Source of the DNA: Candidatus Omnitrophota bacterium
GTDB taxonomy: Bacteria > Omnitrophota > Gorgyraeia > Gygaellales > Profunditerraquicolaceae
Length of the DNA: 64,000 nucleotides
Assembly (NCBI GenBank): GCA_041650295.1
Contig: JBAZLM010000005.1
Coordinates: 36,592-100,591 of the forward strand
Direction: 5' to 3'
Shown piece by piece: positions 7,510 through 64,000 of this stretch (its first letter is position 1; every line of letters begins with the position of its first letter). Under the pieces are notes generated by a model. The model made no database searches. It saw only the letters and a list, made by a program, of their open reading frames with translations, and was not told the DNA's origin. The position numbers were made by a program, and so were the translations under genes.

Positions 7510-7524
7510 TCAAACTCTATTAAT

Positions 7525-42300: not shown

Positions 42301-45300
42301 GCATTCCTATCCGGCCACTATGCCAATAACCAATAAAGCAGATAAAGCTCCTACTCCTAGACAATTTAATAAAATTCTGCAGGCTCTTGGTGGAGAGCAA
42401 GCTTTAGCCAGCAAAGGAATAACTTTAAATATAAATAATGTGGTAATTAGCCCAGCATTAGAGGCTCCGGCGGAAGTCAGAGCAGGAGTATTATACGTTA
42501 ATCCTAATATCTTACGTGGTCCTCCGAAACAATTACGCGTAATCTTTGAAGGACATGAACTACTCCACTTAATTAATCCTACCGCTACTGAACAAAGAGT
42601 ACAGATATCTACAATTAATTACTTAGTAAACCATCATCGTCTTAATGCCCACATTAAATTTTTAAATAAGAATAAATTTGGTTTGAGAGCAGATATTACA
42701 TGGTTAACTACTTTAAATTTAAAATCTAAAGAAACAGCTGCTTCTAAAGATATTAAGTTTGAAAGGCTAGCCAAAGAAGATCTGCGATCTATGGCTAAAT
42801 ATTTAAGTCCTATTCTTGCTTTTGGTATCGTATTGTGTGTTGTGCCAGAAACTATTCTCGGGGCTTTAATGGCAATTCCTTTTATCGGTCTAGCAGTTTG
42901 GCGGTTAGTATTTCCTACTAATTGGCGCTTATGGACAGTAGCTACACTTAATTGCACAGATCGTCATTATCAAATTGCTTATAATAAACTCATTAAAACT
43001 AAAAATAAAAGAACAATTAAAGCATTAATTAAATGTTTAGAGGGAAAAAATTTAAATACTTGTTTAATTGCAATTAATATTCTTGGCAAAATTTATTCTG
43101 TAAAAACAAAAGCTAATAAATTTGATCAATTAGTAGTTTTATCTTTTATTGGCTTGGCACATAAGCTGTTAAATCCAAATGAAGAGATGTTTGCCTATTC
43201 TCGTTTTAGTATCTTTAAAACTATTATAAATACTTTATCTGTTTGGGTAGATACAGAAAAAACAATATTTGAAAAATCTAGTAATGAATATTTAGCAATT
43301 TATGAATTTTTTAGTAAATTCTTAGCTTCTAATGAGACAATACAAAATTCTGGATTTGAATTTTTAGCTTTACGGGAATTCTGTAAAAAATTTCCGGATC
43401 AGACGCCAGCTCATTGTGTTAGTAATTTAGTTAATTACGTTCTCGTTGGCAGTCCAACTGATCGTTCTGCTAATGGCGTCAGTACTGAAGAGGTGGAAAA
43501 GGCCATCGCCAAATTTGGTGGAATAGAAGAAATCTTAAAGCGAGAAATTACTAAATATACTGACTATATTAATATAATTTTTGGAATTAATATAGTAGAG
43601 CAAAAATTAAAGATTTCTTCAGAGATTATAAATTGTTTAATAGCTGCTTGTGGGGTACATTTTGCGCAAGCTCCTCCAGAATGGCATATCGGTGCTGCTA
43701 TTGGAATTTGTAAGCGTGAAGGTAAAGAAGAGCCAGTAATTATTATTACACAAGCAACTTCTGCCGATGCTATTGCTCATGAAATTTGCGCGATCTTAAT
43801 CCCTGGCTTAACACATGAAGAAAATTTAATAGTAAGTAAAAGAGTTAATTGTTCATTAGCTGCTTATGACTCTACCAATGCATTAGACAATTCTTTAAAA
43901 GGACGAGTAGAAAAAGTCTCAGGGGCTTTGGCTAGACTCTATAATCTGGATTCTCGTGAATTGCGCAATGTGCTTAATTTGGCTCCGGCTTGGGAGAAAG
44001 TTTTTAATGAAGAGATTCTTCCGGAGATTATTGATGGATATCTGCAGTATTTATCCTCTCCAAATGATAAAAAGCCTGCAGCGGTAGTTTTAATTACCGG
44101 AGAAGGCGGAATCGGTAAAACTACTGTAGCTTTGTCCTTTGATGAGATTGCGGAAGCGGCTTTAAAAAGAATTCGTGATGAAAAAAAATTATCAAGACAA
44201 TCAAATTTAGTAAGAGAGATTGCTTTCGATGATTATATTTTACAAAAAAACGATCGCCAAATTGATCCGTTAACTGGAGTTGCTACTGAAGATCCTTTTA
44301 AAAAATTCGAGTATGATCGTTTCTTAAAAGATATGCTAGCTTTGAGGCAAGGACAAACTATTTATAAGCCAATTTATGATTTCAATCTGCGTGGTCGACT
44401 TAAATTTGCTCTAAATCAAGAAAATCAGATAGTTTTAATGGTGGGTAATGAAGAAATTTTAGTTGGGGTTAATGTAGAAACCCAAGAGCCGTATTTCTCT
44501 TATCAAAATAAGCAGCAAGATTCATTAATGTTGGGTACTAATGAAATTAAAGTTGAGTTAAAAATATATCGTAATACTGAAAATAATATTGTTATTAATT
44601 TGCGAGACAGCGAGCATGTTTTTCGATTTGATGAAAAAGGTAAAGTTAATGTTAATGTTGGGGATGTTACACAAGTTTTAGAAAAAGGTAATTTAGTTGA
44701 AGCTTTGGAGATGATTGTTCCGCAGGGAAAAGTTTATATCGTTGAAGGTATTTTGGCTTTACAAAGCGATAAATTAAACGCTAAGTGTTTAACGGTTTAT
44801 ATTACAGGAGGTTTTGAGGCACGACTTTTACGTATGCTTAGCCGTTCGATGGGTGAAAGTGGAAGAAAGAACACGATTCAGGAGTTAGTTGAGCAACGTT
44901 TAAGATTAATAAAACTTGAAGAAATGCCTTACATTTGGCCAGTGAAAAAGAAGGCCCGTTGGGTAGTTACTAGTTTTAGTCGTTCAGAAGCTGTTTATAT
45001 GCTTTATATTCGTGGTCAACTAAATTGTCCTAATAAGAGAATAGTGCAAATTTTAAAAAGCTTAGGAGTTGATTGTCATGCACTAGTTGATGCATTGAAG
45101 AATATTTATCAGAATGAGGTGGCGGCTCGCTTAAGCGGTGGGCAGGGAATTCCTAGTGCTATTGAAGGAACAGCCTTTCATGTTTTTATGGATAATTGTG
45201 GTTTAGTTATAAAAGTGCCCCGCGCTGAATTTTTAAAGGAATTTGAAACAAATTTTATTAAGTTTTATAATACAGTGCTTAAAACTAGATTAGGTGGATT

Positions 45301-48300
45301 GATTGTTCCAGGAACAATTATTGATTTAAATAAGCTAGGTGTGGATATTAGCAGAGTAGTTGACGGTGATTTTTATAAATTTGAAAAGGTTCTTATTCAA
45401 AATAAAGTAGTAACGCTTGGTCAAAGATTAAATGATCTCTTAAAGGTTCAAGATATAGAGGGAGTAAAGAAATTAATTGATCAGTATTTTATTTTGCAGC
45501 AAGCGCTTTGGCGAAGGGGTGTTTGGGACAATAAGCCTAAGTTTATGGAGAAATATGGTTTTATTCCTTTAGATGGAGTAGAACAATTAGTGGTGGTTGG
45601 GGTTGATGGCTTAAAAGATAGGATAGAAGAATTTGATCCTACTTTATATATGAATAAAGATTTGCGTCCGCAAAATCTGCCGGCAGAATTAGAAGATTAT
45701 TATGATCTGAAGGTTAAGGAGATGATTTTTAGTAAAAATGACTTTTTAACTTATTTTGCCAGTGGATTGAAAGAGTGTCAAATGGCTCCAGATATTTCGG
45801 ATATTGAAATTGGTCGTAAACAAATGGATCATATTGTCACTACATTAAGGCAAGCGATGTTACAAAAATATCGTAAATTTTTTGGTTGTCTTAATTATAG
45901 TAGGGATAATCCGCTAATTTATTGGATAAAGTTTTATGTGGATACAGTTTATGCTAAAGGGGTAGCGCAGCAAGTTTTGTTAAATGCTTTTTATGAACAA
46001 GTTATTGAAGATCCCCAGATGTTAGATGAAGTCTCTAAAACTACTAGCAAACTTCAGGAAAAACTTAAAGAATTTAATCATAACGGTCTAGTCAGTGATT
46101 CCGGGCTTTTAGTGATGGCTGAAGAAATGCTTTATATTAAGAATGAATTTAATCATCAGAAAACGGATTCAACTGTTGGCGCTTTAGTGGGTGCTCAAAC
46201 TAAGACAACTGAAATTACCAATTATAGTGTTGAATTAGTATCTAAGCCAAAAATTACATCTGAAGAAATTGAAAAAATTCTATCAACTATGCGCGGTATG
46301 GCGGATGCGATGGCAGTTTTATGTACCGGTATTGAAGGATCTACTTATAAAGATGTTCCCGGTTTGCTTATTGATATTCAGAAAATGGAAGAACTTTTTG
46401 GGATTATTGCTGAGCGTGTAAAATCTACGGATAAAAATTTTGCTATTCATCCGGAGCTAGTTAATATTCGCGTGGCGGATGATGCTTTGGAAACTGTTCC
46501 TTCTTTAGAGGCATTAGAGACAGATCTCAAAGTTGGTATTTATCCGATTGCGGCTAATCCGATACATCTATCGCATATATTAGTTGGAATCGAAGCGATT
46601 GCTATTGGCAAGTGTGACGTGGTTTATTTTGATGTTCAATCCGGTGGGTATGTGCTTAAACCGATTTTAACCGCGACTGAAAAATATCGATACGAATTAA
46701 GTATGATACTTTTAGCTTTACTTGCTCCGTTCTTTGGTTTTGCGATAAATATTTCTAAAGACGGCGAAACGGATATTTTTAGAATTCAGAAGCTTAACCT
46801 TAATCAGAAAAGGGTTAAGTATGTTTATATTGTAGGTAGTGATCATTATCATCGGTGGGTAGAAAAAGACGCTTCGGATAATTTAATTCGGGGAACAGAA
46901 GAATATAGGCAGTATGTTTTAGTGCACAACGGCAAAGAGCCGACTCCGGATACAATTCAGAAGATGGAAGATAAATTAGTTGAATTTGGGGTGGATGCTT
47001 CGGAACTGGCCATATTATTTGTGGAGCGCATCGGTGAAGAAGCGCAAGAAACAATTGCTAGTTTATTAGATATCAGCATGCTTCCTCCGGTCGGGATGGC
47101 TTCTTCTACGGCGATTCGTAATGCTTTCAAGGCAATTGAAAGAATGACTAAGGATGAAGGCAATTTAAGCGCAGTGGAATTAGCAGAATTGCAAAAAGAT
47201 TTATTGAAAGGGTTAATTTATCTGCCGTATGTTAGCTACCAGTATATTATCGACCATTTGGATTATTTAGATATGCTGGTGCATCCTGAGGAATATGATG
47301 GGAGCAAGCCGGCTGATCGTGCGGCTAATGGCGCAAGTGCTAAAAGAGTTGATGCGGCTATTAATGATTTTGGTGGAATAAATGAAATTTTAAAGAATGA
47401 AATTAAGGATATTCTTTATGATAGAAATATTATGTTAGGTATTAATAAGGCGGCCTATAGCATGGATCAGGATCCTACGGCAATATATAGCGCGTTGATT
47501 GCGCGAGGAGTACATTTTGCTCAGGCACCTCCGAATTGGAAAATTGGCTCAGCCATTGGTATCTTAGATAAAGATGGAAAAATAGAATTGGTAGTTATCC
47601 TCTCTAAAGATGCAAATCCTGAAGAAGTTGCCCATGAAATCCGCGCTGTATTAATTTCAAGCTTAACTCACCAAGAAAATCAGTTATTAAGATCTAGTGA
47701 CAAAGTAGTTAAGAATATGTTTACTCATTCGATTGCTTTTCGTGGCTTGTTAACTCCCGAAGAAGACGCTGCCGTTGAATATTTTGATGACCCGATTAGC
47801 CCAGCTAAAAAAGGAGCAGTTCCCCTAAGCACACTTAAAGAGTATTCAGCAGCTGAAGAAATTATTTTTAACATCAAAGATATTGAATTAAAGAATCATG
47901 GTGCGCTGATACTTAATGAAGATTACCTGAAAAAATTTCATATTTATTTCTATCAGACTACTAGTAGTCCATCGCCTAATGCCAGCGTTGATTTTCAATA
48001 TATGAATATTTTTGTTTTTGCTAAATCTGCAGAAGAACTCAACGCACAGATTATTGCTAAAATATTAGTGCATGAATTAGTTGAATATGTTTTGGTTGAA
48101 CATTACTTAACAAATAATCAGTCAGCTAATTTTTCTGTAGCGCATCAGCAAGCCCTAGCAACAGTTAAGGATCTTGATGCCTTTATTTTAGCGAATAAGA
48201 AAACGAATAATTCTAGTGAAGCGCAATCACTATCTGATAAATTGATAGGTCAAAATAATGGCGCGGTAGTAAATACCTGTGGTAAAGATTTTCCTGTGAT

Positions 48301-51300
48301 TGCTAAATATTTTGCGGATGATCCGAGAAAAACATATTTGGCCTTGCGTAATTGGCAGAAAGAATTTAAGCAGCTTTTAGGGCAGGATAAAACATTAGAG
48401 CAGCTCACTACTTTTAAAGACGATCAGCATCCGGCCGGCACAGAGTACTTCTTATTAACTGATGAGCAAGGCAAATTTTTAAAGGACATTCAGGGTAATT
48501 ATATCATCCGTCCGCGCGATCTTTGCCATCAGGACGGGTCCTATCATCGCAGCGTTTTGATCGCCGCTATTGATTATCAGGGTAAATTTTTAAGGCAACA
48601 GCGTTCACAAACCAAGAGAATGTTTAAGCATTATTATGATCTTTCAGCCTGCGGGCATACTGCTTTGGATGCGGATTTGACAGGGGCGGCCCAAAGAGAG
48701 CTGGAAGAGGAGATATTCAATGATGAACATAAGATTGATTTAGCACGCTTAATTCAAATTACCCCGGATGCTTCGGTGCAGCATGATTTTATTTATACTG
48801 ATGAAAATGGTAGAAAATATATTGATAATGAGCGGTCGACGCTTTTTGTTTATTTTATGACCGAGGAAGAAAAGTTAAAGATTAAGTATCAGGTATCGGA
48901 GGTTGATCCTAAGGGCTGTAAATGGCTATGGTTTAAAAAAGAGGCGAATCGATATCGGGCTCATCCGGATAAATATGCAGCTGGCTTTAAAAGAGTGGTA
49001 GATAACCAGGATTTATATATAAAATTAACTAGTGTTGCAACGAGTGTTTATGGTGAAAATTATGCAGCAATTGCTGAAAAATTTGATGCCGAAACTTTTA
49101 AAGCTTTATATAAATTGACACATGAAGATCTCGACAATAAGGCCATGCAAGAAATTATGAATATAATTATAAGTAATTATCAGGAGCAAGGAATGATAGA
49201 CCGACTTTTTGGGATTGATTTATTAAATCCAGTAATGCAGCCGCTCGATTTTAATGATTTTAAGCGCCAGGAAGAAAACACTAGGTTTGTAGCTGACCGA
49301 GTGTTTCAGCTCACGGATTCTCATGATAAGTTATCAGTATTTAGTAGAGATAGATTACTTGATATGATTTGGGATGCCTTAAGGATAATTTATCTTTGGA
49401 TGCCCTTGTCTATATTTAAAAGATTTTATAACAATCAAGCGGTAGTGTCTGGACATGCTATCATGCATACTTTGGATGTTTTGGATGAGTGTTTTAGAAT
49501 TCAGAATGAACAGAAATATTTTTTATGGGAAGAAGATATCAAAAATTTAATTTTTGCCTCCTTGACTCATGATTTAAGTTATCTTATATATCAAGAAGGA
49601 CACTATCATTTTTCTTCAATTTGGGCAAGTGCTATTCTGGAGAAGAATAAAAAATATAATAAACATGCAGGAGACTGGACTTTTGGGACGCATAATAATA
49701 GATATGATGAAATTAAAGTGGGGGATATTATTAAGTTACATGATAAGGCAAAAGAGTACAATCTATACGATAATAATCAAGCAGCGGCGATTCTTCGGGA
49801 TGCTGATAAGTTAACTGCTGATTTAGATCCGCAGAGAATATATGATGCTAAGTGGTCAAATATATTGGAAAAGAACGGTTATACGCTAGAAAGGCCGGTA
49901 CCTTTTACAGAAATATTTTTTAATCCTCAAGAAGATCTTGATCATCGGGTAAAGGTGATAATCGATAATCTTCCGTATGATAGAAGTGATGCGGTTACAG
50001 ATCTTTTCCGTAAGATTATATACGATCGCAAGCAAGGTGGTGGATATTTGACCCGAGGGGGATCAGATATAATAAGCACTGCGGCTAATGATTTAAGTGT
50101 ATTGGTTGATTTTATTATAGATAAAGCGCAGGATTTGGAAGAAAAATATGGGTTTGGATTAGAAAGAATAGAACAAATTAAAGGAATTTTTTATGAACTT
50201 TATCATGTTATTTTTAATCAATGTTTTACTGAATCCCTGATTAATATAAATACAACTCGGGAAAATGAAATTTATTCACAAGAATTTAATTTGTTTAAAA
50301 GCAATCTAATCAACCGTATTTTAGAATTTAATCGAAGAATGCAAGAACCGTTGTTCTATGATAATGATGAAGATATTAATATGATTTTTTACGTATGGGA
50401 GTCTCAAGAGAGTCTTAACGCCGTTAAGTTTCTTGGGTCAATGGCAAAGGAAGGTTATTTAAACCGTGGCGAGATTGAATTAATTAAGGAGAATATAAAA
50501 ATTGCTTATGGACCAAACAAGCAAGTTCCTTCTGATTTTTTCCCGCTATACGATCAAATTTTTGATTTGTTTACTGTTGATTATGATACTGTTTTAGGTT
50601 ATTTTAACGATGTTGAACAAAATTTAGATACTACTTCAGGCCTTCGTAGTCAATTACAGGATTATTTAAATATTTCAGGGCAAGATAATAATCCTTTAGA
50701 CCGCTCAGCTAGAGGTAAGAGTAAAAGAAAAGTTAATGCGGCTATTAATGAATTTGGCGGGATAGAAAAAATACTGCAAGAGGGGACGTTGGATGTTGGC
50801 CTTTTCCAAAAGATTAATTCAGGTATTGATTGTACAGCAAAAAGTTTGGGAAAGACCGGTGAAGAGATTGAAAGATTATTGATGTCTAGGGGTGTGCATT
50901 TTGCGCAGGCGCCTCCGGGATGGGAAATCGGTCCAGCGATTGGTATTTTGAATCGCGATGAGAAAAAAGAGCTGGTAATTATTGTCCCCAAAGATGTGGA
51001 CATCGAAGATCTTGCCCATGAAATCCGCGCGGCAATTCTCCCCGGTTTAACCCATCAAGAAAATTTAAATATACAGGCAGTTAAAGAAATCCAACTCGAG
51101 CCGGTTTTTATTTCAGCAAATAAGCAAGCGCTTTCTTCTGAAGTAGCTTCAAATAAAGATTTTTTTGTACTGGTATTTAATTGCGGCAGCTCTTCAATTA
51201 AATACCAGTTTATTAATATGCAGGATGAATCAGTGGTGAAAAAAGGGACGATTAATATGATTGGCGAAAGCGATGGCCCGGCGAATTATTTAGAAGTAAT

Positions 51301-54300
51301 TAAGAATATTTTGGCGGATTTGTCTAGCTCCGGGTTGACTCCTTCGGCGATCGGTCATCGTGTAGTGCATGGTGGGGATAAATTTGAGGCATCAGTTTTA
51401 ATTAATGCCGATGTTAAGGCGGCGATTAAGGATTGTTTTAAGCTTGCCCCGCTGCATAATCCTGCGCATCTTATGGGCATCGAGGCTTGTGAAGAGCTGC
51501 TCCCGGGCATTCCGCAGGTTGCAGTTTTTGATACCGCTTTTCATAGCACTTTGCCTGCAGAAGCTTATTTATATGCTCTTCCTAAAGAGTATTACACTAA
51601 GTTTGGTATTAGGAAATATGGTTTTCATGGCACCAGCTATCGGTATGTCGCTAGTGCTGCGGCCAAACAATTAGGCATTCAGCCGGAAGATTTGAATGCG
51701 GTGATCTGCCATTTGGGTAATGGATGTTCAGTGGCAAAAATAAAAGCGGGAAAATCCGTGGATACGAGCATGGGGCTTACTCCTTTAGAGGGATTAGCCA
51801 TGGGCACGCGCTCCGGGGATATTGATGCCTCTGTGTTGGAGTTTATCGCTAATGAAACCGGAAAGAATATCGAAGAGCTGATGGCAATGTTAAATAAGGA
51901 TAGCGGATTATTAGGCATTTCCGGAGTAAGTAATAATATGATTAAATTACATGAAGCATTGGGAATAATTTCTCCGCGCCGGCCAAAGGAGATTAAAGAT
52001 GGAATTTCTAAAGTTGAGTTTTGGGCGGCGCAAGATGAAGATTTAATCAAAAAATATACTGCTTTAGCGCTTAAGGTTTTTACTTATCGCGTCGCCGGTT
52101 ATATCGGCAAGTATTATTGCGGCTTGCCGGCGGAGAGCGCTAAAATTATCTTTACGGCGGGCATTGGTGAGAATGCCGGTATGATTCGGCAAATGATTTT
52201 AGATCAGCTTCCGGGAATTGCGAATTTAGAGCAGCGGGTAATGGTGATTCCTACGGATGAGGAGCTGATGATTGCTCGAGATACGCAGGAGATTATTGAA
52301 AATATCCGGAATAATTCTATTTTGGCGCACAAGGGTTTTTTTGTTAAAGAGCAAGTTGGAGCACTGGTTAAAGTTTTAGGTTCTAGTACAACAAATGATA
52401 GTCAATTGGATGTAGATAATTTTATTATGAATATTTCGCAGTATGGCGCAATGACTACGGGTAAATGGTTAGGTCACCGGGAAAAAGTCGCGCAGGTAGT
52501 CAATGGTGAATTTTATAATGTTGTTCCGGTTACTATGCAGTTAGCACCTACTACAATTTGCCAATATAATTGTCCTACTTGTAGTTACGGTCGATCAAAA
52601 GAGGAGATCAGGAGTGCACTAAAATCAAAGACTGCCAATAAAAAAGATTTTTTTATGAGCATGGAAGATATGAAATTATATTTGGATCGCATTAAAGAAG
52701 CAGGAATAAAAGGTGTTATCTTCACTGGAGGTGGCGAACCGTTATTGAATCCTTACACGATAGATGGACTGGAGTATGCTAAGTCTTTAGGTTTACAGGT
52801 AGCCATGTTTACGGATGGCTACTTACTTACTCCGGAAACTGCTCAACGGATTATGAAAATTGGTTTAGTATTTTTACGCATTAGTTTTAACGCAGGAACG
52901 CCGGTTACCTATAAGCATTTTCACGGCACGACGGAAGATGCTTTTTATCGTGCAATTAAAAATATAGAGAATATAGCTGTGGCTAAAGAAATAACAAAGA
53001 GCCAAACCTCATTTGGGATTGGCGTTATCATTACTCCGTTAAATATTAAGGATCTTTTACATATTGCCAAGATTGTTAAGTCAATTGAAGAGCGCCATCC
53101 GGGAATGATTGAATTTATAGCTTATCGGCCGACCGTTCGTTATGAGCGTGGCTGTCAAAGAACCTTATTTACAAAGCAGGCGGTTGAATATATGCGCCAG
53201 ACTCCGGAATTAAGCCGTTATTATCAGGCGTATTATGATTTTATTTACAATGGAAAACAGTTCCCGGCTTCATTATTTCAAGAAGCGGTTACGATATTAG
53301 ATAACGAAGTTAAGCCATATTTGGAAAGTGGAGAATATCCGGTTAAGCTATTAACACCAAAAGGACGTATTGAAGGAGTTTACCAGACCGAAAAGCCTTT
53401 TTCGAAATGCTTAGCTTGTCCTTGGTGTAGTTTTATCGGACCGGAAGGCAATGTCTATCATTGTGTCGAGTTAGCGGTTGATTCTAGAACGATTTATGGC
53501 AACCTTAAAAAACAAACATTTAAAGAAATATGGGAAAGTCAGCAGAGAAAAGATGTCATTGAGCGGGTTAATGTTGAAGGGATGAAGTCTTTCTGTCCTC
53601 CAGTATGTTTATTATTTGAATATAATAAAATATTTGAAGATATTCAGCAGGGGTTAACTAATCCGGTGGTTCGGGAAAGATTGATTAAGGAAATTGAACG
53701 ATTTAGAGTTAGATTTGAACAGGAAGATTTGCCCATAGTCGGTAAAGGAGTAGATTTTATGTACCCGGCGAGGATGCCAGTAGCTAATGAGGAAGATCGG
53801 GAGCCGAGTAAGGCGGAATTAAGAATAATCCGCCGAGCCTTTGGCGGCAAGAGATATTATGAGAAAATTACTGGTAAAAAATTCAAGGATTTGGTAATTG
53901 TCCTTTATGCAGATTCAGATGTGGTGACCGAAGTTACTCCATCCGGAGCATTGTTAATTAACCCGAATCTTTTGCGCGGCCCGCCGAAACAGTTAAAAAT
54001 AATCTTCCAAAATCATGAATTATTTCATTTGCAGAATCCGAATATTGCTGAAGAGTTAGCCCACGCTTATACTATTCAATATTTATTAAAAAAAGGTTTA
54101 TTACAACGCCACCTATCCTTCTTAAAAAATAATAAAATTGGTTTAAAGCCGAATCGAGATTGGTTGTTAGAGTTAGAATTAGAAGATGTATTAATAAAAG
54201 TGATATCTTCTAAAGCTTCTCCTGCGCAGCAGGTAGCGATGATTGTTGAAAGAGCAGTTAATTTATTTAATCCAGATATAGTTTTTCAATGTATAGATGC

Positions 54301-57300
54301 CAGCCGTTGGATTAATTCTGGTTTGGATAAATTAGGTATCGTAAATTCACGCCGGGTAATTCATCTTAGCAAGGACATTACTCGAGAGCCGAAGATTGGC
54401 GAAAAAACCGAATATCACGATATTATTGAAGCGGTTTTTGAGGGCCAAATCTGGGTCATTGATACCCAAGCAAGACAATTTACGCAACAAACTAATAGTA
54501 GAATTCATGGTTTGTCTTTGGAGTTTGCTAATAAGTATATTTACAGCGCCAAAGATTATTATTCTATGCTTAAAGCGTTCTGGCTTGCTATGTCGGTTTT
54601 CCAAATTTCAGAAGCTTTGATTGATTCCACTGCTACCTCCCAAGGAATTGCGCCAGATTTAAAGAAAGCTTACTCAATTAAAAGTTCACGCATAAATTTT
54701 AAAAATTTATTAAGATTTTTAAGGGGAGCTGTTCAGCATAAAATAGGCCAAGGTATTATTTTGCATAACTTTGTGCCGTTTCCGATATTAGCTTTGGCAG
54801 TTTGGCCGGCAATAGCCGATTTTGTTGCAGCGCATCCGATATTAATGGGAGTAGGTATTTTATTAACTGGTGTTTGTTTAGCTTTGGTTTTATGGCGTAA
54901 ATTATTTCCGGTGAATTGGTATTCGCGAAGATTGAAAAGTTCGTTGGCTGAAGTTCGTGTTGAGGCAGCTATTGCTTTAGGAAAAACTAAAAATCATAAA
55001 GCCGTTAAGCCACTATTGGTGACGATCTATGATCATCATCTTTTAGTGCGCGACGCGGCGGTTGGCGCTTTGGGTCAGCTTAAAGATAGTCAAGCCATTG
55101 AGCCATTAATTGAATTATTTAGGATTTCAGATGATTATCGTAAAACGCTTATCATTAAAGCTCTTAGTGAAATAAGCGGTGAAAAAGTGTCAGTGGATAG
55201 CCTTGGCGCGGTGGTGGGTAGTAAGTTCGGTGAGCAGGAAGCAATTAAGATGAGTCAGGCGCTGCCTCTAGAACCAGTCGCTTCACCGCTTAGATTTGGC
55301 ACCAGTGGCTGGCGCAGTAGTAGATATACAGATTTTGTCATGCCCAATGTTCGACGTATATTAGAAGGAATTGCTTTGTATCACGATAGGGTGCTTAAGA
55401 AAGGAACATTTTTAATTGGTTATGATCCTAGAGCCGAAAATCAAAGTTTTGCTAAAGAAGCAGCGAGTATCTTTGCGGCACATGGTATTAAAACGCAAAT
55501 TATAATTAGTGATCCAACTCCTACTCCGGTTTTAGGATACTTAGCTGGTTCTAATGATGAGATTGCTGGAATTATCATTTTTTCCGCTAGCCATAACCCT
55601 GCCGAATATAATGGTATAAAATTTTATCAATATCACGGCGGTTCGGCGGATGTTGAAACTACGGATGTTATTTCAGAATTAGCCAATGCCGCCATAACCT
55701 ATAGGATAATGGATTATCAACAAGCTAAAGTAGAAGGCTTAATTACTGAAATTACTTTAGGTCAAGTAATTCAAAAATATGTTTTTGAATATATTATTCC
55801 TAGAGTTAAAGAAATCGGCGCTTGGAATGATATCGTAAATTATATCAAAAATAATCCGGAATTTGTGTTGGTGGTTGATCCGATGCAGGGTGCGGCGGTA
55901 GAATACTTAAAAGCAATTTATTTGCAGCTAGCCAAAGAAGCCGGTCGGGACTTCTTTATATTAATTCATACCAATAATCATGATCCAGAATTTTTAGAAG
56001 TAAATAGCGCGCCTAATCCGACATTGCCAGAAAATATAACTGAACTAATTAGTAAGGTATCCTTCGGCAAACAGGTTTTTGGTTTAGCGGTAGACGGGGA
56101 TGCGGATAGATTTAGAGTGATTGATTTTGGTGGCAAAGTTATTGAGGCTTCAGATGTAATTGCTATTTTAGCGCATTTTTTAAATACAGAGATTGGCTTG
56201 ACTGGTGTGATTGGAAAAAGTGTAGCCACATCTAATTTTGTCAATGCTATTGCTAAATATTTAAAATTAGATTTAGTGGAAGTTGGGGTAGGGTTTAAGA
56301 ATTTTGTGAATCAAGTAGTTAAAAATAAGGTTAATTTCTTAGTGGGCGGAGAAGAATCGGCCCATGTTTGTTTAGGGCTGTTGAATCAGTCTTGGGACGA
56401 TGGCATTGCTATAGGGCTATTGTGTTTTTGGGTAGTTGCGCGTACCGGCAAAACTATTTCTGGGTATAAAACTAGAATTGAAAAAGAAGTGGGGAAACAT
56501 TTTGACTCTGAAGTAATTACAATTTATGGCCAAGACGATTCGATTAAGGATGTAATTACTAATTTAATTCAAAAGACTGCAGAGGAACTAGAATCCGGAG
56601 TTCCGGCTTTAAAGACGACAATTGTAAAACAGGTCAGCAAGTTACAAAATAAGAAGGTAAAGGAATTAATTACTTTAGATGGCTTAAAAATTGTTTTTGC
56701 ATCCGACGATTGGATCCTTTTGCGACCTTCGGGAACTGAGCCAGCAGTTAGGCTTTATGTAGAAGTCACAGATTCATCTAAATTTGCTAGCTTGGTTAAG
56801 CTAGGTAGGGCTTTATTGGGAGTAGAAGAAGAGATTAGTCAAAATTTAAACCCGATTGCTTACCGCGGTTCTTTAACAGATGAAGAAAATTTGATTGCCC
56901 AAAGGTTAGCTAAAACAGCCGATCCTCTGACAGAAGGAGCAAGAGTGGCAGGGAGCTTAAGAGGGTATAAATCTGCAACTAGCATAATTTGCAATAATAT
57001 TAAAAATATTCATCTAGATGCTTATGGTAAGTTAGAATTAGAAGCTATTTTGAATAAATTTTCAATTTATTTTTATCAAACTGCTAATCGTTCGCCACCT
57101 AATGCGGTAACCGATGCTTTCAACCATCGTATTATCATTTTTGCTAATACAGAAGAGGAGCTCACCCATAAACTTTTGGTAAAAATTTTAATTCATGAAC
57201 TTGTCGAATATGAAATTCTCAATGACCCTCAGGTAACCACCGCTATTGCCCATCATCAAGCAGAGTTAGTTATAGATAGCTTAGATGATGTGGCGATTTT

Positions 57301-60300
57301 ATTCAACGATGAAGAATCGATATATTTTTCTAAAACAATCATTGATGCATTAAATAAGCTATTTTTAGAGCAAGATTTCTTAGATTATTATAATTTAATT
57401 TATCCGCAGAAGTTAGCTATCACTGGAGTAGATCATCAGCCCGGAAGAGATTTAGTAGATATTTTAATTGATACTACTTCTGGACAGCGTGAATTCAAGG
57501 TAGCTTTATATAAATCTGGCTATTCATTAGATAATAACATAGAAAATAGATATTTAAGGATAGCTAGTAGAATTGTCGGATTATATCAAAATTTTCTTTT
57601 GCAAAGAATAGATAATGAATTAGATGCTGTTGGGATTAAAACCGCAGATGTAATTGAACAAATTGAAGATTCATTTCGTCAAACTGTTTACGATCAAGAA
57701 TGGGAATCTTTAAGTGAGGGCTCAGATGCCAAAGTATATAAAAATCAGGATTCTTCATTAGTAATTAAGGCAGTAAAAGAAAGAAGTCTTAGTTATGATT
57801 ATTCTTATAATGTTAATCCTTTTATAAATTATCAATTAGCAAAACAATATTTAGGGCATTTAGCTGTACGTTTTTTAATCTTGGATAATTTGAAAATTAG
57901 ACTCCCAGATAAAGATGGGAATATTGAAGAAGTAATTATTGAAAGAGCGGTTGTGCAGAAATTTGTTAAAGTATTTTTTAAATTAGGAGTACATGACTAT
58001 ACAAAATATGAACATTGTACTGGTATTTTAGCCGATTTGATTAAAGAAGGAAAAATTGAAACGGCAAAATTTATAATTGGTGAATTTTTAAAAGGCGTGC
58101 GAGCAATTTTAGCCCGTGGATTATTTGATTGGGATATCAAAGCAGAGAATTATGGATATGATCCTTCGGTGGGTAAAGTAGCAACATTGGATATGGGTAA
58201 ATTATTGTTATATGATCAGGTTGTGCTTACTTCAGCAAAGGTATTTGTAAGAAATTTAAAAATTACCAGCGATGATATCTATGAATGGACTAAATTTGTT
58301 ATTAATCAAGAAGCGGCTCTTGAATTAAAGAATTATTTTGATACTTCAGTAAAAAAGGTTTTTTGGTTGGCCTATGATGAGGTGGGATTAGATATTACTA
58401 AAGATCTGAATGTTTTAGATAAAGAACATATGTTAGAAGACAGTGTGCGATATGATTTATGTTATGACAATTCAATAGGAAAGCCGGTTAATTATGCCGG
58501 TACTAGAGAAACTAGAGAAAGGGCTGCGCGGTTAATTTCTAAATATTTAAAAGACAATAATATAGATATTGATGCGGTGGAGATGGTTTTTGCTAAATTT
58601 GGTTTTGCCCAGCTTTGCCAAGAAACAGAAGTTTCTAAAATGTTATCCGATGGTTTTGTTTCTGATAATATTTTCTGTCTTGCTTTAGATGAAAATAGCA
58701 ATCCTTATTGCGGTATTAAAGCCAGAGAGCCCAAGAATTTTCCTACTGTTCAATATGTATTATATAACGATGAATATAAAGGCCAGCTTACTACTCGTCA
58801 AGACTCTGTTAATATTAAAAAAGCAGTAGTTAAAACATTGCTTCGATATTATGACTATCGTCAAGAAGTATATGATACTTTAGCAAAAAAATTTGCATTG
58901 GATAAAACTTTAAAAATTTGGAATTCTATGAACTTGAGGGAAGAATTTGAAAAAATAAAATACAATAATTTAAACGTTGATCAGAAGGATACCTTGAATT
59001 TATTATTAGGTATTTGTAAAGATGGTGATTTAGCTGGAAGGATGATCTTGGCTTTCGATGAGTTGGCAGAGACCAGAAGATATCCTTTTGGCATAGATTT
59101 GAATAAGATGTATTTGATTAAGTCCGAGAATGATTTTGCCGTTGAGGTCTTTGGGATGGGTACCTTTACTCGGAAAACCCAGGAAAAAGAGGTGCTCTTG
59201 CATATGCATCAAAATCTTAGCTTTTCTTACGAGGATATTTTGGAGGCGATTGTAGAAAGTAAAGATGAGATGGGTGCAACTATTTTTATTAGTAAGGTTT
59301 ATTTTCAGTGTAGTGCAATGGATAGCGAGCTTAAAGAAGTATTAATGAAAAAATTAAACCAGCTTCGTTCCTCTGATTATACTGGCGTATTTGATAGTGT
59401 TGTAAATGGTTTACCTAAGAATCATTTGCTTTGCTCAGCGAACAATTTAACTGATCAAAATAATGCCTATCCTTTACCGGTGCCGGAAGCGGTTCGCTCT
59501 GATATAAATAAAACATTTATTAATTCCACGGTAAATAATTTAGAAATACAGACTTCTCATATTCCGGTGAATGCTTATTTTGAGTCGCTGCAAAATATTT
59601 TAAGCGTTTTTAAAAAATGTTTTGGTCGCGCTCCCCCGAGATTAGGTCTCTGGCAATTGCTTGTTTCCACGGATTTAAGCTTAACGCGAGGCAAGGTTGC
59701 CGCCTGCGATATTAAATCCCGAACTGTTTATCTGCACACTTATTTTTTTCAACTTTCCCAAGCTAAACAATTAGAAATTCTTTATCATGAGCTCATTAGC
59801 CATATGCAAAAGGGTATCGCCGATGAAAATATTGCTCTGCGTGATACGAATGCTTTCTTTTGGCTACAACCCAATGCTCCCCAACTAGTCGGGAAAACGT
59901 TGATGACTTTATCGATGGAAGGTAATATTCCGGAATTTGCCGGATATCCGGATGCGCAGAATGCTTGTACTCGGGGTGGATTAGGTGCATATTTTGGCGA
60001 TAAGTTGGAAGGGTTGTTTGCGATTGGCTTGACTGCCTGGGGCGTTGAGCCGGCTTATGCTTATACTACTAGAGATGGAAAAGATATCGCCGTGGATTAT
60101 GCGCCATTATTTAATCAGGGCGTGATTAGTAAAGTTTTAGATAAAAATGGTGCTCCTTTAGTGTTACAAGTTTATGCTTGGGATGATCAATGCAAAAGTT
60201 CACTTTATAAGGATAAATCCATCGCGGTGGAAGTTTGGCTGGTTAACCGCGGAGGCACGCCGCTATATCTTTTATACTCACAGGAAGTATTTAATAATCT

Positions 60301-63300
60301 TTATACGGATAATCGTGCACATCGTTTTACTCAGGAGATAGTTTTTGGTAAAGCGGTTTATTGTTTAATGAAGACACTTAAAATTGTTCCGGATATTATG
60401 CATTTAAATGAGGCGCATACCGTAGTGGCTGCCGCGCAGGCTAGAGCGGACAATGATTTTAACAAAATGGTTATTGTTTATACCAATCACACATTAGTTC
60501 CGGCTGGACTGGAAATTTTTCATGCTTCCAATTTGGGCGTAGACTCTAACCGGATGATGTATCAAATTGGCGTGCCGGCGGAAGAAGAGTGCAAGTTTCG
60601 TTCATATTTTTTACGTGCGAACGGAATGGTAGATTTTTGTTCTGCAGCAGTGCATTTAGCCGATGTCATTAATGCGGTGAGCTTAGAGCATGCGGCGGCA
60701 ACACAGAGACTTTTCCGTTCGATGTATGGTGATGAATTCAAGACTAAAGTTGTGGGTGTACTTAATGGTTCAGGTAAAACTTGGATGAATGATTCATTAA
60801 GGGTAATTCAAGATCGTGGTCTAATGGCTAATCAGGAAGAGTTAAACTTAATTCATCAAAAGGGTAAAATAGAGGCTTTTGCAGAGATTGAAGCCAGAAC
60901 CCAGGTGCAATTAGATTTAAGCAAACCAACGATTTGGATGGTGCGTCGGATTGTAGATTATAAGAGCCAGTATCCGATGTTACGATTTTTATTACATATT
61001 TTGTGTGCTGATCGCAATATTAGCTATACGCGCGATCAACTGCAAACAGCTTGGTTTAGAGATATTCCGGATTTATTAACACAAGAGAATCGTAATTTAT
61101 CGCAAGAGGTGTTGAATTATATTTTTGCCCAAAAAGAAAGGGTTTTCGGTTTAGGATTTCAGGTAGTGGTGGGCGGTCCGGAGTATATGTCATTTTGGAT
61201 TGCTGAATTTAAACGTTGGTCGCTACTTCCTGAATTTAGAGGAAAATTTATTTATGTGCCAAATTCGGATGCCCGCTTGCTTAAGATGCAAGCCATTGGG
61301 GCGGATATTTGTATTAATATCCCTCGACCGTTAGAAGAGGCTTGCGGAACTTCTGATCAAAGAACTGGATTAAACGGTGGGGTTAATGTGGCTATCCGTG
61401 GCGCTGGTCCGGTAGAGTGGATCACCGATTATAATGAACAGAGTAAAGCGGGAAGTGGATTTTTATTAGAGTCATATACTAATACTGTAGATAATGAAGT
61501 TACTGCAGATAATTATTTATTTTATCGTAAGGCACCGGCCGATATTCTTTCTAAGTTAGAAGTAGCGCGTGGATTGTTTGATCTGCAAGATAAGTCTGCT
61601 TGGAAAAAATTGATGCACGATGCTTACCTTGACGCTAACGCTAAAGTGAGCGCTAAAGCGATGGAACAGCGTTATGCTTTAAATGTTTACCAACCTAAGG
61701 CGACAGATGAATTAAGAAAAAAAATAGCGCAAGCTAATGATTTCCCGCTTTCTGCGATGGAGATGATGGATGTGTTAGAGCTGGGAATTTGCCAGCAGGA
61801 TAAGCAATTGCTTTTTGATTTATTAGCCAGGGTAAAATCCACAATTTTTCCTGCCGCCACCGGGCGGATTATGAAAACGATGATGAAGATTTGCGACCGG
61901 TATGGGTATGAGATTACTCAAGCGCAGGCAGATATTTTGCTAAGTTTTGCGGATAATTTATATTTCCCGGAAGAAATCTGCGAATTTTTTACTAAAACAC
62001 AATGGCGTGGCTACGCTTTTAATTATTTAAATGAAAAATTCCAAAAAATTCATCCGGATGCAAGCATTAGTTACGCTCCGACGCGGCGAAGAAACTTGTT
62101 GTCAAGTTTAAGTATTTTAGCTAAAGACGCTGGCTTACTACAAGAAACTTTAGACCAAATATGGTTTAATTCAGCGGTTAGGTTTAGCCGAAGATATATT
62201 ACTTACGAACTTAGAGAAGGTAGAATTAGTGAAGTTAAAGATGAGGCGATAATTTTTATTTATCATAAAAATCCTAACGGCAAAATAAGTTATGAATCGA
62301 TTTATGCGCATGGAAAAGTTAGGCCTGATCATCGGACCTTGTCGCCAGGTCAGAAATATATGGGTAAAGTGTTTAAAGTCGGAGAAATTTATGAGGGGAT
62401 GCCGGCATTTGATTTCAATGGAGAAGAAATATTAAAAGATTGCGATGAGAATATCCTTTCTTTACGGGGGACATACACTGAGCTGGAAAGTGTAGTAGGG
62501 GGATTTGTAAGATTGGATCTGCCCAGACTTCCGGTAGAACAATTATTAAATGTTACCGGTGAAAAAGATCTAGATGCTTATATTTTTAGACAAATTGTGT
62601 CGGCAGCGAAATTTATGGCAGCCATTGTTAACCCGCAGAAAGAATTAGTCTTAGAAGCGTTGATCAAAGAGAGCTTAGAAAAAAGATTTAATCGCTCATT
62701 GCCTTTACGTTTTTCGATCGAAGATTTTAATCGTTGGGTAGCCGGGGAGCAAGTTTTAGGAATTCAGAATCAGCAAAAAATAGTTATTCCAAATTGCGCT
62801 GAACTTGAGTCGGTTTGTGTTTCTGACTCAGATGGAATACATCCTAGATTTGCATTAGCTTTAAGAGATATGCTTGATGAAAAATTTCCGGGGGTACAAG
62901 TAGTTTTAGAAAAAGCTGATGGAAGAATGGCTTTTGCCAGTGATGATCAGGAAATTACCAAGTTGGCTTGTACGCAGGGTGAAGTAATCTATGTATTTGC
63001 TTGGGGTGATAGTCATCGCCATGCTGCTGCGGCCTTGGATAGAGTTATTTCGTTAATTAATCCTAATGGACGTACTATTGGTCTTACTTTTGGTCACGGT
63101 CGAGGTCTGGTGATGAGAGCCGATGAAGTTTTAGCTGTGCAGCAAAGCGGAAAGACTATCCATCATCCTTTTCTGTTGGCGGGAAAAAATCCAGCTGATT
63201 TGGAGAATGTAATTTTGGAAATTTCTTCTTGGGGCGCATTACAGGGGGTGATGACGGTTAGCGGCGGTGAGTTTAACCATGTTGCGGTAAATTTTAGAGA

Positions 63301-64000
63301 TAATTATGTGTCGAACATTCCCTGGTTAAGCGGAGTGGATGCGGATTATATGCAAGGTCTTTTTGGCAAAGAAATAGAGTTAATCGTGGATAAAACTAAG
63401 CTGCCGATAATTAGAGTGGTTAGCGCGCAGGAAGATAATCGTTGGGTAAATTGTACGCTCAAAGCCCCTAACACCGATGACTTAATGCATCGATTTAATT
63501 GCGACATTACCTACATTGAGCAGGTAATTAAAAATGCTGAAGAGACCGCGGTGCCGGAAAGTTTCATTAATACGATTACCGATCAAGGATTCGACGATTT
63601 AATTAAAGCTATTCTGGGCCAACGCTCTCCGCATATTCGCTTGTTTGTGGTAAAAGCGCCTGCAATTGCTAATTTATTCGGTATTCCTCGTTACCAGAAT
63701 GCAGTTTTAGCACGCGACACGATTCCAGTTTATACTGTACCGGATAATGCTGGCAATCTTTGTTGTTACGTTACGCAGAATTTTTATGATTCGCTTTTGG
63801 TTGACCCGTGGTTATTTTGTTTTGCTCTAGATCATGAATTTTATGAAAAAGGTACGGTTCCTCACCGTGTGCATAAACAGGCCTGGCAAGATCGGGGAAG
63901 CTTAGAATGCTTTGCTGATCCGGCGACCGGAATTAATAAGTTCATAAAGCTTTATATTGATCGCTTATTTGCTGAAGGCGATATTGAAGGGTTAGACCGA
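33332..64000 (+). CDS. giant multidomain secreted/membrane protein, 5' complete and 3' end beyond the window (>=10,223 codons, >=30.7 kb)
   Basis: ATG at 33332 is preceded by in-frame TGA and by AAAGGAG 8 nt upstream. My hand translation of every codon to 64000 found no in-frame stop. Frame consistency (codon starts = 2 mod 3) was verified at embedded motifs: acetate kinase 51185, radical SAM 52559, PGM 55298, phosphorylase 61334. It is absent from the ORF track because no stop lies within the window. Signal peptide [29 protein letters not shown]. Confidence 0.85.
   Translation, partial: [10223 protein letters not shown]
49400..49850 (+). other. HD-domain phosphohydrolase-like region embedded in the giant ORF
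   Basis: [12 protein letters not shown] ... [13 protein letters not shown] ... HYHFSS ... [12 protein letters not shown]. The H...HD...H...D pattern defines the HD superfamily. Confidence 0.6.
51160..52310 (+). other. acetate/propionate kinase (AckA)-like domain embedded in the giant ORF
   Basis: [77 protein letters not shown], ...[12 protein letters not shown]. All acetate kinase signature segments are in order. An ~45-aa insertion precedes the C-terminal subdomain. Confidence 0.8.
52500..53650 (+). other. radical SAM domain with C-terminal SPASM-like cysteine cluster, embedded in the giant ORF
   Basis: CQYNCPTC (CX3CX2C), [11 protein letters not shown] glycine-rich SAM motif. Downstream CLACPWCSF...HCVEL...CPPVC resembles SPASM/twitch auxiliary-cluster cysteines. 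Confidence 0.7.
55280..56830 (+). other. alpha-D-phosphohexomutase (phosphoglucomutase/phosphomannomutase) domain embedded in the giant ORF
   Basis: RFGTSGWRS, active-site loop [13 protein letters not shown], metal loop AVDGDADRF, sugar-binding GGEESAH, phosphate-binding [15 protein letters not shown]. All four PGM/PMM loops are in canonical order. Confidence 0.8.
59880..61560 (+). other. GT35 alpha-glucan (glycogen/maltodextrin) phosphorylase-like domain embedded in the giant ORF
   Basis: [11 protein letters not shown] (cf. YSGGLGVLAGD), PLYLL, [20 protein letters not shown] (cf. HLNEGHAAF), [11 protein letters not shown] (cf. TTHTPVPAG), [28 protein letters not shown] (cf. EASGTSGMKAALNG...LDGWW). 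Confidence 0.7.

Follow-up and report, generated by a model that had tools for sequence, protein, structure and literature searches.

The 64,000-nucleotide stretch of DNA analyzed here (the window), from contig JBAZLM010000005.1 of the Candidatus Omnitrophota assembly GCA_041650295.1, contains a giant open reading frame (ORF) in which positions 55280-56830 of the forward strand most likely encode a complete, catalytically active alpha-D-phosphohexomutase module of the phosphoglucomutase/phosphomannomutase (PGM/PMM) type, as judged from its sequence and a predicted structural model. The domains and motifs of this module (the PGM module), its embedding in a longer protein, the taxon and the conservation of catalytic loops in embedded relatives were all observed directly, and the fold was seen in a predicted model. 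An initial annotation, made from the sequence and without database searches, had proposed a potentially functional phosphohexomutase at this position, and that proposal appears well supported by Pfam profiles, alignment to solved structures, loop conservation and the predicted model.

The phosphohexomutase module

The PGM module corresponds to amino acids (aa) 7317-7833 of the giant protein. Its placement inside a giant protein was verified, as a single stop-free frame starts with an ATG at position 33332, reaches the end of the window and encodes more than 10,223 aa; this length is a lower bound, the frame being still open at base 64000. The ORF and the domains of the module are as follows.

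33332..64000, forward strand: giant ORF, no stop to the window end, signal-peptide-like N-terminus (by hydropathy)
55292..55693, forward strand: PGM/PMM domain I (Pfam PF02878), holding GTSGWR and SASHNP
55844..56125, forward strand: PGM/PMM domain II (PF02879), with the Mg2+ loop DGDADR at its end
56156..56467, forward strand: PGM/PMM domain III (PF02880), with the sugar loop GGEESAH
56609..56794, forward strand: PGM/PMM domain IV (PF00408), with the phosphate loop RPSGTEP

All five signature loops, which had been described as present and correctly spaced, were read in order in the translation of 55280-56830. GTSGWR occupies nucleotides 55298-55315 and is followed by the phosphoserine loop SASHNP (55583-55600, aa 7418-7423), whose catalytic serine is aa 7420. 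The Mg2+ loop DGDADR (56093-56110, aa 7588-7593) supplies D7588, D7590, D7592 and R7593, the sugar-binding loop GGEESAH lies at 56345-56365 (aa 7672-7678), and the phosphate-binding loop RPSGTEP at 56723-56743 (aa 7798-7804). The Pfam profiles of domains I to IV matched in this order with near-full profile coverage, and each exceeded its gathering cut-off: 95.5 bits (E 2.8e-27) against 22.5 for PGM_PMM_I, 46.2 against 29.3 for II, 60.6 against 20.7 for III and 38.7 against 23.1 for IV. The same four domains were recovered in a tiled scan of the whole protein. This four-domain match is far beyond chance.

A phmmer search of Protein Data Bank (PDB) sequences returned 52 phosphohexomutases, with the Thermus thermophilus enzyme 1tuo as the best match (7e-31), followed by 9du5 from Thermococcus kodakarensis, 1wqa from Pyrococcus horikoshii and 2z0f from T. 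thermophilus. In residue-level alignments to these four structures the phosphoserine, metal, sugar and phosphate loops of the module stood opposite their counterparts; SASHNP, for example, aligned with the TASHNP of 1tuo, 9du5 and 1wqa. An AlphaFold2 model built from 46 sequences reached a mean predicted local distance difference test score (pLDDT) of 94.4 and a predicted template modelling score (pTM) of 0.92, and showed the heart-shaped four-domain fold. A Foldseek search with this model gave full-length matches to 1tuo (E 2e-32, TM-scores 0.78/0.91) and to the Salmonella PGM 3olp (TM-scores 0.81/0.78), with 9du5, 1wqa, 2z0f, human PGM1 and Pseudomonas aeruginosa PMM/PGM (1k35) as further matches; E values over 1tuo, 3olp, 9du5, 1wqa and 1k35 ranged from 1e-24 to 2e-32. 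Given the ordered Pfam domains and the full-length structural matches, the order and spacing of the motifs therefore fit the four-domain architecture, and neither the alignments nor the model superposition revealed any incompatibility with it.

Compared with the solved PGM/PMM enzymes (1tuo, 2z0f, 1wqa, 9du5, 2fuv/3olp and 1k35), the predicted module shares the four-domain fold (TM-scores 0.72-0.91) and the phosphoserine, Mg2+, sugar and phosphate loops, but it is only 19-24% identical to them in structural alignments. It also exceeds the enzymes of approximately 455 aa by some 50-60 residues, has additional helices in domain IV and between the first two domains, and is embedded in a giant polypeptide whereas these enzymes are free.

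A distinct clade of embedded relatives

A protein-database search identified 18 clusters (P0001-P0018) at 42-52% identity to the module, after which identity fell sharply to about 35%. Most of these proteins were approximately 526 aa long, some were labelled Omnitrophica, and the alignment was confined to aa ~7305-7837 of the giant protein. The view that such stand-alone proteins (P0001 and P0011 among them) are the nearest relatives was dropped after a scan of GTDB genomes with the clade alignment placed most clade members in very long ORFs. That scan found the clade in 35 species, from Omnitrophota, metagenome-assembled genomes (MAGs) labelled Planctomycetia/Planctomycetales, Elusimicrobiota, Sumerlaeota, Bathyarchaeia/Thermoproteota and one Methanosarcinales MAG. 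Most copies lay in long ORFs, from 1,300 aa up to over 7,000 aa; several of these ORFs ran off both ends of the ±10-kb locus and thus span at least 7,000 aa, and the five best matches (52-55% identity) were all in very long open frames. Two clade genes, L002 and L006, stood alone. Identity to the module across the whole clade (P0001-P0018 and loci L007-L041) was 42-55% over the full length.

The module and the ~526-aa clade members share signatures such as GEESAH and conserved tryptophan and aspartate residues after the sugar loop. The window copy, with SASHNPAEYNG, resembles the ordinary family in its serine loop, where many clade members instead have TASHN[KR]xxD. Among the 33 embedded copies, the S-H of the serine loop (TASH[NS]), DxDxDR, GEESAH and RxSGT were near-invariant, and the sole clear exception was the degenerate N-terminal loop of L012. 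These comparisons indicate that the clade is a distinct PGM lineage that occurs mainly inside giant proteins of several phyla.

The neighbors of the PGM module differ between the window and its relatives, most of which are parts of large proteins with other neighboring modules. Pfam scans that covered 1,000 aa to each side of the module in five other giants revealed enzymes of adjacent reactions within approximately 150-280 residues after the PGM: in L010 (11442-14441), a glucose-6-phosphate isomerase of the cupin type (102 bits) some 150 aa further on, and in L009 (11543-14542), a UDP-glucose pyrophosphorylase-like (UDPGP) domain. HAD phosphatases preceded the PGM in L015 and L034, and L016 carried GGDEF and HEAT domains. 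Elsewhere in the clade, a GT-B module like that of the window protein (described below) lies immediately upstream of the PGM in L018, two tandem PGM modules occur in L008 (584-5080), and complete proteins of 1,351-2,406 aa combine the N-terminal 'N1' module of the giant with a PGM. Among separately encoded members, one Bathyarchaeota copy adjoins GT4/GT5 glycosyltransferase and glycogen-debranching genes, and the P0001 gene adjoins a glycoamylase gene. The glucan and hexose-phosphate theme suggested for this part of the protein is thus borne out in relatives by the upstream GT-B module, the isomerase and the UDPGP-like domain, but the giant itself also mixes in acetate kinase, radical SAM and NUDIX modules.

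Some loci of the clade have features of their own. In the Methanosarcinales-labelled MAG, one contig (L015:2-21529) consists of a single open frame that spans 7,175 aa or more and carries a member of this PGM clade; either the contig was mis-binned and stems from an Omnitrophota-like episymbiont, or the frame was transferred into the archaeon. In Bathyarchaeia/Thermoproteota MAGs (L017, L019, L023 and L024) the PGM frame is approximately 970-1,040 aa long and extends some 430-490 aa past the module, and this extension matched no part of the giant protein. L005/L039 is a frameshifted long-read contig with a separate gene downstream of the PGM. The tail of P0036 and the unannotated genes beside stand-alone relatives (472 aa in L005, 558 aa in L006 and the upstream gene of L002) showed no similarity to the giant or to each other.

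Is the module an active mutase?

The retention of the loops over deep divergence, together with the recurrence of enzymes for neighboring reactions, is the strongest available argument that the module would work as a hexose-phosphate mutase. The reactions in question are the interconversion of glucose 1-phosphate, glucose 6-phosphate and fructose 6-phosphate, the conversion of glucose 1-phosphate to UDP-glucose, and those of glucan enzymes. We consider it likely, with good though not full confidence, that the PGM module is an active mutase. It probably faces the cytoplasm and acts on phosphates of glucose or mannose, a proposal that we hold less firmly than activity itself. On this view the module is one interchangeable cargo among the enzyme modules, connectors and hydrophobic hairpins of a probably membrane-tethered multi-enzyme protein. 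From the data above we infer enzymatic activity, substrate, cytoplasmic location and a possible channelling of intermediates to neighboring modules.

The mechanism would follow the established chemistry of the phosphohexomutase family. Phosphorylated Ser7420 would phosphorylate a hexose 1- or 6-phosphate, and the resulting bisphosphate intermediate would reorient in the cleft and return a phosphate to Ser7420. D7588, D7590 and D7592 would hold Mg2+, the GEESAH loop of domain III would read the sugar ring, and R7798, S7800 and T7802 of domain IV would bind the substrate phosphate.

Several observations weigh against this assignment. Activity is a prediction from sequence and model. Among 118 relatives, 74 alignment columns were at least 95% conserved, and the module deviates at seven of them (N7416I, T7418S, S7432Y, G7595R, N7607S, T7651V and R7728V). 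No NCBIfam equivalog cut-off was reached, so that a substrate is not assigned. In the window, the immediate neighbors of the PGM are uncharacterized connectors and a protein-kinase-like module, and the link to a pathway comes from the relatives. Finally, helix counting could place the PGM on either side of the membrane, given that the N-terminus resembles a signal peptide and that the single hydrophobic segment at aa 4456-4474 is ambiguous. These points are taken up below with the alternative explanations on which they bear.

Substrate specificity

The module may be an active enzyme with another specificity, as a GlmM-like phosphoglucosamine mutase or a phosphopentomutase that serves cell-wall or nucleotide metabolism. 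Archaeal GlmM was indeed the best-scoring NCBIfam model, and phosphoglucosamine mutases and a Thermococcus phosphopentomutase were among the sequence and structure matches. All equivalog scores were far under their cut-offs: 181.4 against 439 bits for archaeal GlmM (TIGR03990), 115.5 against 778 for pgm (TIGR01132), 126.6 against 447.6 for GlmM (TIGR01455), 100.2 against 618 for PMM/PGM (NF007088) and 82.6 against 600 for PgmG (NF046027). With the best score this far below its cut-off, no substrate is therefore assigned, and by these models the module is a member of the phosphohexomutase superfamily that falls outside every named NCBIfam subfamily. The sugar loop of GlmM enzymes is GEQSGH, whereas GGEESAH is of the GEES type found in PGM and PMM/PGM enzymes. 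In addition, the modules found near the PGM in relatives (glucose-6-phosphate isomerase, UDPGP-like and GT-B) and the GT4/GT5, debranching enzyme and glycoamylase genes beside separately encoded members all use glucose-derived substrates. We regard a different specificity as unlikely on this evidence, though it fares best among the alternatives.

Membrane topology and location

Judged only by hydropathy and charge counts, the N-terminus of the giant protein resembles a signal peptide, and some 15 hydrophobic segments along the chain cluster at aa ~1650-1850, 2047-2340, 3153-3193, 4456-4474 and 7142-7194. The last cluster is a hairpin on the N-terminal side of the module.

54755..54913 (aa 7142-7194), forward strand: hydrophobic hairpin, ~120 aa upstream of the PGM module
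54932..55165 (aa 7201-7278), forward strand: HEAT repeats between hairpin and PGM (HEAT_2 46-48 bits, HEAT_PBS 33 bits)

An active but extracytoplasmic mutase, which would pre-process sugar phosphates from prey or host cells before uptake, would suit the signal-peptide-like N-terminus, and an odd or even helix count can put the PGM segment outside. West-Roberts et al. (2023, bioRxiv 10.1101/2023.11.21.568195) discussed an extracellular placement for the domains of related giant proteins ('Archaeovorins'), reported predictions of such domains as extracellular and suggested pre-processing before uptake as a role for those of glycolytic type, but they also allowed for a missed transmembrane helix. 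A 2026 preprint (10.64898/2026.06.07.730766) likewise reported a topology of signal peptide plus transmembrane segments in 39% of long proteins.

The local evidence points the other way. The hairpin at aa 7142-7194 has a five-residue uncharged loop and five and four lysine or arginine residues in its outer flanks, which by the positive-inside rule places both of its ends in the cytoplasm. The segment just upstream of the hairpin, which on this reading lies on the same side of the membrane as the PGM, holds acetate kinase and radical SAM/SPASM modules, whose ATP-, S-adenosylmethionine- and Fe-S-dependent chemistries are cytoplasmic. Mutase turnover requires glucose-1,6-bisphosphate, which is a cytoplasmic metabolite. 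The hairpin charges and the cofactor-dependent modules of the preceding segment thus suggest a cytoplasmic PGM module, and we consider an extracytoplasmic one improbable. A consistent inside/outside map of the full chain was attempted from hydropathy and the positive-inside rule and was abandoned, as it fails on the ambiguous single segment at aa 4456-4474.

Possible loss of catalysis or artefact

Alternatively, the module may be a pseudoenzyme that has kept the PGM fold and lost catalysis, acting in sugar-phosphate sensing, in binding or as a structural scaffold element. The seven substitutions at near-invariant positions and the unmet equivalog cut-offs are compatible with this, and so is the degenerate N-terminal loop of the embedded relative L012. 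Furthermore, one of two kinase-like paralogs in the same giant (PKL1) is without the catalytic-loop motifs of the other (PKL2), which suggests that non-catalytic copies may occur in such proteins. However, the module retains all residues on which catalysis is known to depend, including those that are universally conserved, and none of the seven deviations falls among the residues that carry out the chemistry. Other clade members deviate at zero to seven of these positions, so that the count for the module does not exceed that of the most divergent members, which include the separately encoded P0001 with six. The module is 34% identical to ordinary PGM/PMM proteins of approximately 472 aa, the same value as for its relatives, and we see no sign of accelerated decay in its sequence. 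Moreover, loops that stay almost invariant in 33 embedded copies only 42-55% identical are the pattern expected under selection for catalysis. A pseudoenzyme is therefore, in our estimate, a poor explanation with a small chance of being correct.

An assembly or annotation artefact, in which a false giant ORF would hide an ordinary stand-alone gene like those of P0001 and P0011 (~526 aa), is very hard to reconcile with 30.7 kb of in-frame sequence without a stop, with composition and GC skew that were uniform along the ORF in this check, with the reproduction of the ORF start in an independent Logan assembly, with the same PGM clade in very long frames of more than 20 independently assembled genomes, and with the lack of a ribosome-binding site ahead of the in-frame starts and of promoter- or terminator-like sites above expectation around the module, so that nothing suggests its separate expression.

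The kinase-like and GT-B modules downstream

The modules downstream of the PGM are the following.

56786..57286 (aa 7819-7985), forward strand: 'HELVEY' connector, with a paralog at aa 4776-4949 (37-40% identity)
57602..58366 (aa 8091-8345), forward strand: protein-kinase-like module PKL2, with GSDAKVY, LVIKAVK, DIKAEN and LDMG
58445..59431, forward strand: PKL2 partner domain of ~300 aa, which also follows PKL2 in other large proteins that have the pair
59453..59869 (aa 8708-8846), forward strand: recurrent connector of ~135 aa (YHELISH), repeated in other giants
59951..61630 (aa ~8874-9433), forward strand: GT-B module (GT5/GT35-related), with EACGTSDQR at 61337-61363

The kinase-like module was thought to follow the PGM directly. 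Its kinase-like nature is upheld by motifs and predicted fold, but PKL2 starts some 260 residues after the PGM, behind the 'HELVEY' connector of about 170 aa, and it is not a conserved neighbor: a PGM adjoined the kinase-like module in none of 47 proteins. The region of aa 7834-8833 had no Pfam, NCBIfam or PDB sequence match, and a word-indexed protein search with the kinase-like module returned nothing. When both internal copies served as query in an exhaustive profile search, 47 representatives were found, nearly all in proteins of 700-5,800 aa, and two recurrent cassettes emerged, one of repA, a P-loop PRK-like domain and PKL1, and one of PKL2 and its ~300-aa partner domain. Both kinds of kinase-like cassette occur in the window, at 57602-59431 (PKL2 and partner) and at 44087-45730 (P-loop PRK-like and PKL1). 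PKL1, the paralog of PKL2 at aa 3902-4133, has neither the D-x-K-x-x-N nor the DFG-like motif.

PKL2 displays the hallmarks of a kinase, namely a glycine-rich loop, a beta3-type lysine, a D-x-K-x-x-N catalytic loop and a DFG-like aspartate, and its four motifs are conserved in nine relatives. The model of PKL2 (pLDDT 86, pTM 0.82) returned only protein-kinase-like structures among its top 50 Foldseek matches, with Escherichia coli AceK first (E 1e-7, probability 1.0) and PRPK/Bud32, CK2, RIO2 and PknB next. On this model, the predicted fold is that of a protein kinase and not the classical sugar-kinase fold. PKL2 thus shares the protein-kinase-like fold and the catalytic-loop motifs with AceK, PRPK/Bud32 and RIO2, but TM-scores to AceK and its kin are only about 0.45 at approximately 12% identity and without a sequence-family match, and, unlike these enzymes, PKL2 occurs almost exclusively inside very large proteins. 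AceK, the structure closest to the PKL2 model, is a kinase/phosphatase that regulates a metabolic enzyme.

The GT-B module had been called GT35 phosphorylase-like. A relationship to alpha-glucan phosphorylases was confirmed, with homology over both halves to the alpha-glucan family phosphorylase 9l6i (E 6e-19), together with matches to Pfam Glyco_transf_5 and weak matches to Phosphorylase. The module nevertheless stays below the TIGR02094 cut-off (123.3 against 191.7 bits), and the lysine motif that forms the Schiff base with pyridoxal phosphate (PLP), E-A-S-G-T-x-x-x-K, is replaced by EACGTSDQR, which ends in arginine. True GT35 relatives (P0208 and P0209) and 9l6i have EASGTSGEK. The family of the module comprises 74 proteins, of which the nearest are stand-alone proteins of 634 aa at 55-56% identity; many hosts are Sedimentisphaerales, Omnitrophota and Elusimicrobiota, and one Omnitrophica fragment is fused to phosphofructokinase. 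Annotations within the family are inconsistent ('glycogen/starch synthase' or 'glucan phosphorylase'). All members in which the region is present have EACGTSDQR, apart from the most divergent ones (P0204-P0206) with EACGTSGMR, and the last position is always arginine. From its sequences the family looks conserved and functional, with classical use of PLP apparently ruled out. The module accordingly has GT-B-type homology in common with both GT35 phosphorylases (TIGR02094, 9l6i) and GT5 glycogen synthases, and it differs from the GT35 enzymes, which have the PLP-binding lysine, by an arginine kept throughout its own family of some 70 proteins.

A more ambitious joint reading of the PGM, kinase-like and GT-B modules would see a membrane-tethered, single-chain metabolic assembly in which the PGM passes glucose 1-phosphate between a PLP-independent GT-B enzyme and central metabolism, while the AceK-like kinases regulate enzyme modules in cis, for instance by phosphorylating them or even by priming the PGM serine. 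The mutase would then belong to a dedicated 'giant-protein' lineage shuffled among Omnitrophota, Elusimicrobiota and archaea together with glucose-6-phosphate isomerase and UDP-glucose pyrophosphorylase. As a whole, this combination is speculative and we would not expect all of it to hold.

Organization and setting of the giant protein

Self-comparison of the giant protein identified several repeated units, in addition to the 'HELVEY' connector.

aa 2993-3254 and 6811-7250, forward strand: HExxH module plus hairpin unit
aa 3357-3499, 4660-4783 and 5766-5912, forward strand: 'repA' unit
aa 3902-4133 and 8091-8345, forward strand: kinase-like unit

By these sequence comparisons the giant protein is built as a mosaic in which the same units are used more than once. 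The 'HELVEY' connector follows the PGM directly, and its other copy (aa 4776-4949) lies at window positions 47657-48181. The ~135-aa connector comes directly after the PGM in L013 and L018, and several copies are found in other giants. No credible family emerged when the region after the PGM, the connectors, repA and the N-terminal module were scanned against Pfam at relaxed thresholds. The HExxH unit (window 42308-43111 and 53762-55096) consists of a ~135-aa module with HELLH or HELFH followed by a hairpin; its copies are 39% and 30% identical and have no Pfam match, and the unit might conceivably be a zincin-like protease acting on the polyprotein.

By Pfam, the domain content of the giant comprises a PRK-like P-loop domain, NUDIX, acetate kinase, radical SAM with SPASM, HEAT, PGM I-IV and Glyco_transf_5. 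The acetate kinase module (window 51164-52306) matched Methanosarcina AckA 1g99 with an E value of 3e-95 and exceeded the NCBIfam ackA subfamily cut-off (379.8 against 293.4). It is near-canonical, with an insertion of about 30 aa and the usual signature stretches visible in the alignment. Between it and the HExxH/hairpin unit lies the radical SAM module (window 52547-53560), with CxxxCxxC at aa 6410-6417 and a SPASM domain with further cysteines; no equivalog suggests a substrate for it. Near the window end (~62810-63050), GIHPRFA resembles the G-L-H-A-R-P-A of HPr proteins of the phosphotransferase system, but this HPr-like match is weak and below threshold (17 bits, cut-off 23) and has no PDB support.

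The immediate upstream neighbor of the giant ORF is a TilS gene (MFA5092988.1). Ten ordinary genes of the window are identical to proteins in the range MFA5092965-MFA5092988, encoded on a contig of 153,246 bp in a Candidatus Omnitrophota MAG, and the Pfam content of the ordinary genes is that of normal housekeeping (LepA, GatA/GatB, a CtpA-like protease and subunits of carbon monoxide dehydrogenase/acetyl-CoA synthase). GC skew is strongly positive (0.15-0.32) at 44000-64000, the distal two thirds of the ORF, and ranges from about 0 to 0.13 in its first 10 kb; the genes that precede the ORF show values between about -0.16 and +0.10. The final part of the window, queried as an exact 48-mer, had no match in the GTDB genome or JGI metagenome collections, and look-ups with neighboring genes yielded short Logan contigs only. 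Near-identical contigs are present in the sequencing run SRR8542065. Another unusual fusion nearby (10971-17264) is a protein of 2,097 aa in which NAD-glutamate-dehydrogenase-like domains are joined to a UTP-glucose-1-phosphate uridylyltransferase (UDPGP) domain, again an enzyme that uses glucose 1-phosphate. On the reverse strand at 7525-10725, a 1,066-aa protein carries the NCBI name 'cellobiose phosphorylase' and had zero Pfam matches at E <= 0.001.

Significance and comparison with published giant proteins

The enzyme-like domains of Omnitrophota giant proteins have so far been catalogued by Pfam name only, and their role is the wider question behind this case. Retention of the loops in the module and in more than 30 embedded relatives at 42-55% identity argues that such domains are enzymes and not relics, and the enzymes of adjacent steps near the PGM in other giants argue in the same direction. 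At approximately 530 aa, the PGM module is also a small, expressible object with which to ask whether giants are single-chain metabolic assemblies. In addition, two uncharacterized partner families that recur in giant proteins are flagged here, one an AceK-like kinase cassette and the other a GT-B family in which the PLP lysine is missing.

PGM/PMM domains in Omnitrophota giants are already known, and the window protein is no new kind of system. Archaeovorins were described with HEAT, GT5, NUDIX, radical SAM and, less commonly, PGM/PMM domains (10.1101/2023.11.21.568195). The 2026 preprint (10.64898/2026.06.07.730766) counted PF02878, PF02879 and PF02880 in 88, 65 and 64 long proteins, grouped the PGM/PMM Pfams with PF08323, GT1, radical SAM and ROK kinases as a co-occurrence module named 'sugar metabolism', and defined 'multi-enzyme metabolic clusters' as a class of giant protein (class 1). 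Both preprints work at the domain level and do not mention active sites or catalytic residues (10.1101/2023.11.21.568195; 10.64898/2026.06.07.730766). What is added here is a residue- and structure-level case for a predicted intact active site, a distinct PGM clade living mainly in giant proteins of several phyla, comparative support for neighbors of the PGM that appear ordered by pathway, and a sequence- and model-based characterization of the two partner modules.

With the giants of both preprints, the window protein shares its origin in an Omnitrophota genome, a length above 10,000 aa encoded by one ORF, hydrophobic segments scattered along the chain, and many enzyme Pfams, including NUDIX, radical SAM, GT5 (PF08323) and PGM/PMM, with HEAT scaffolding and no dominant repeat. 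It has the size and domain content of a 'multi-enzyme metabolic cluster', being at least 10,000 aa in one ORF of an Omnitrophota genome and tiled by distinct enzyme Pfams, none of them dominant, with scaffolding of the HEAT type. The window protein is not among the named examples of either preprint, and it differs from the published giants in that it also contains an acetate kinase module close to the canonical form and two protein-kinase-like cassettes that are uncatalogued.

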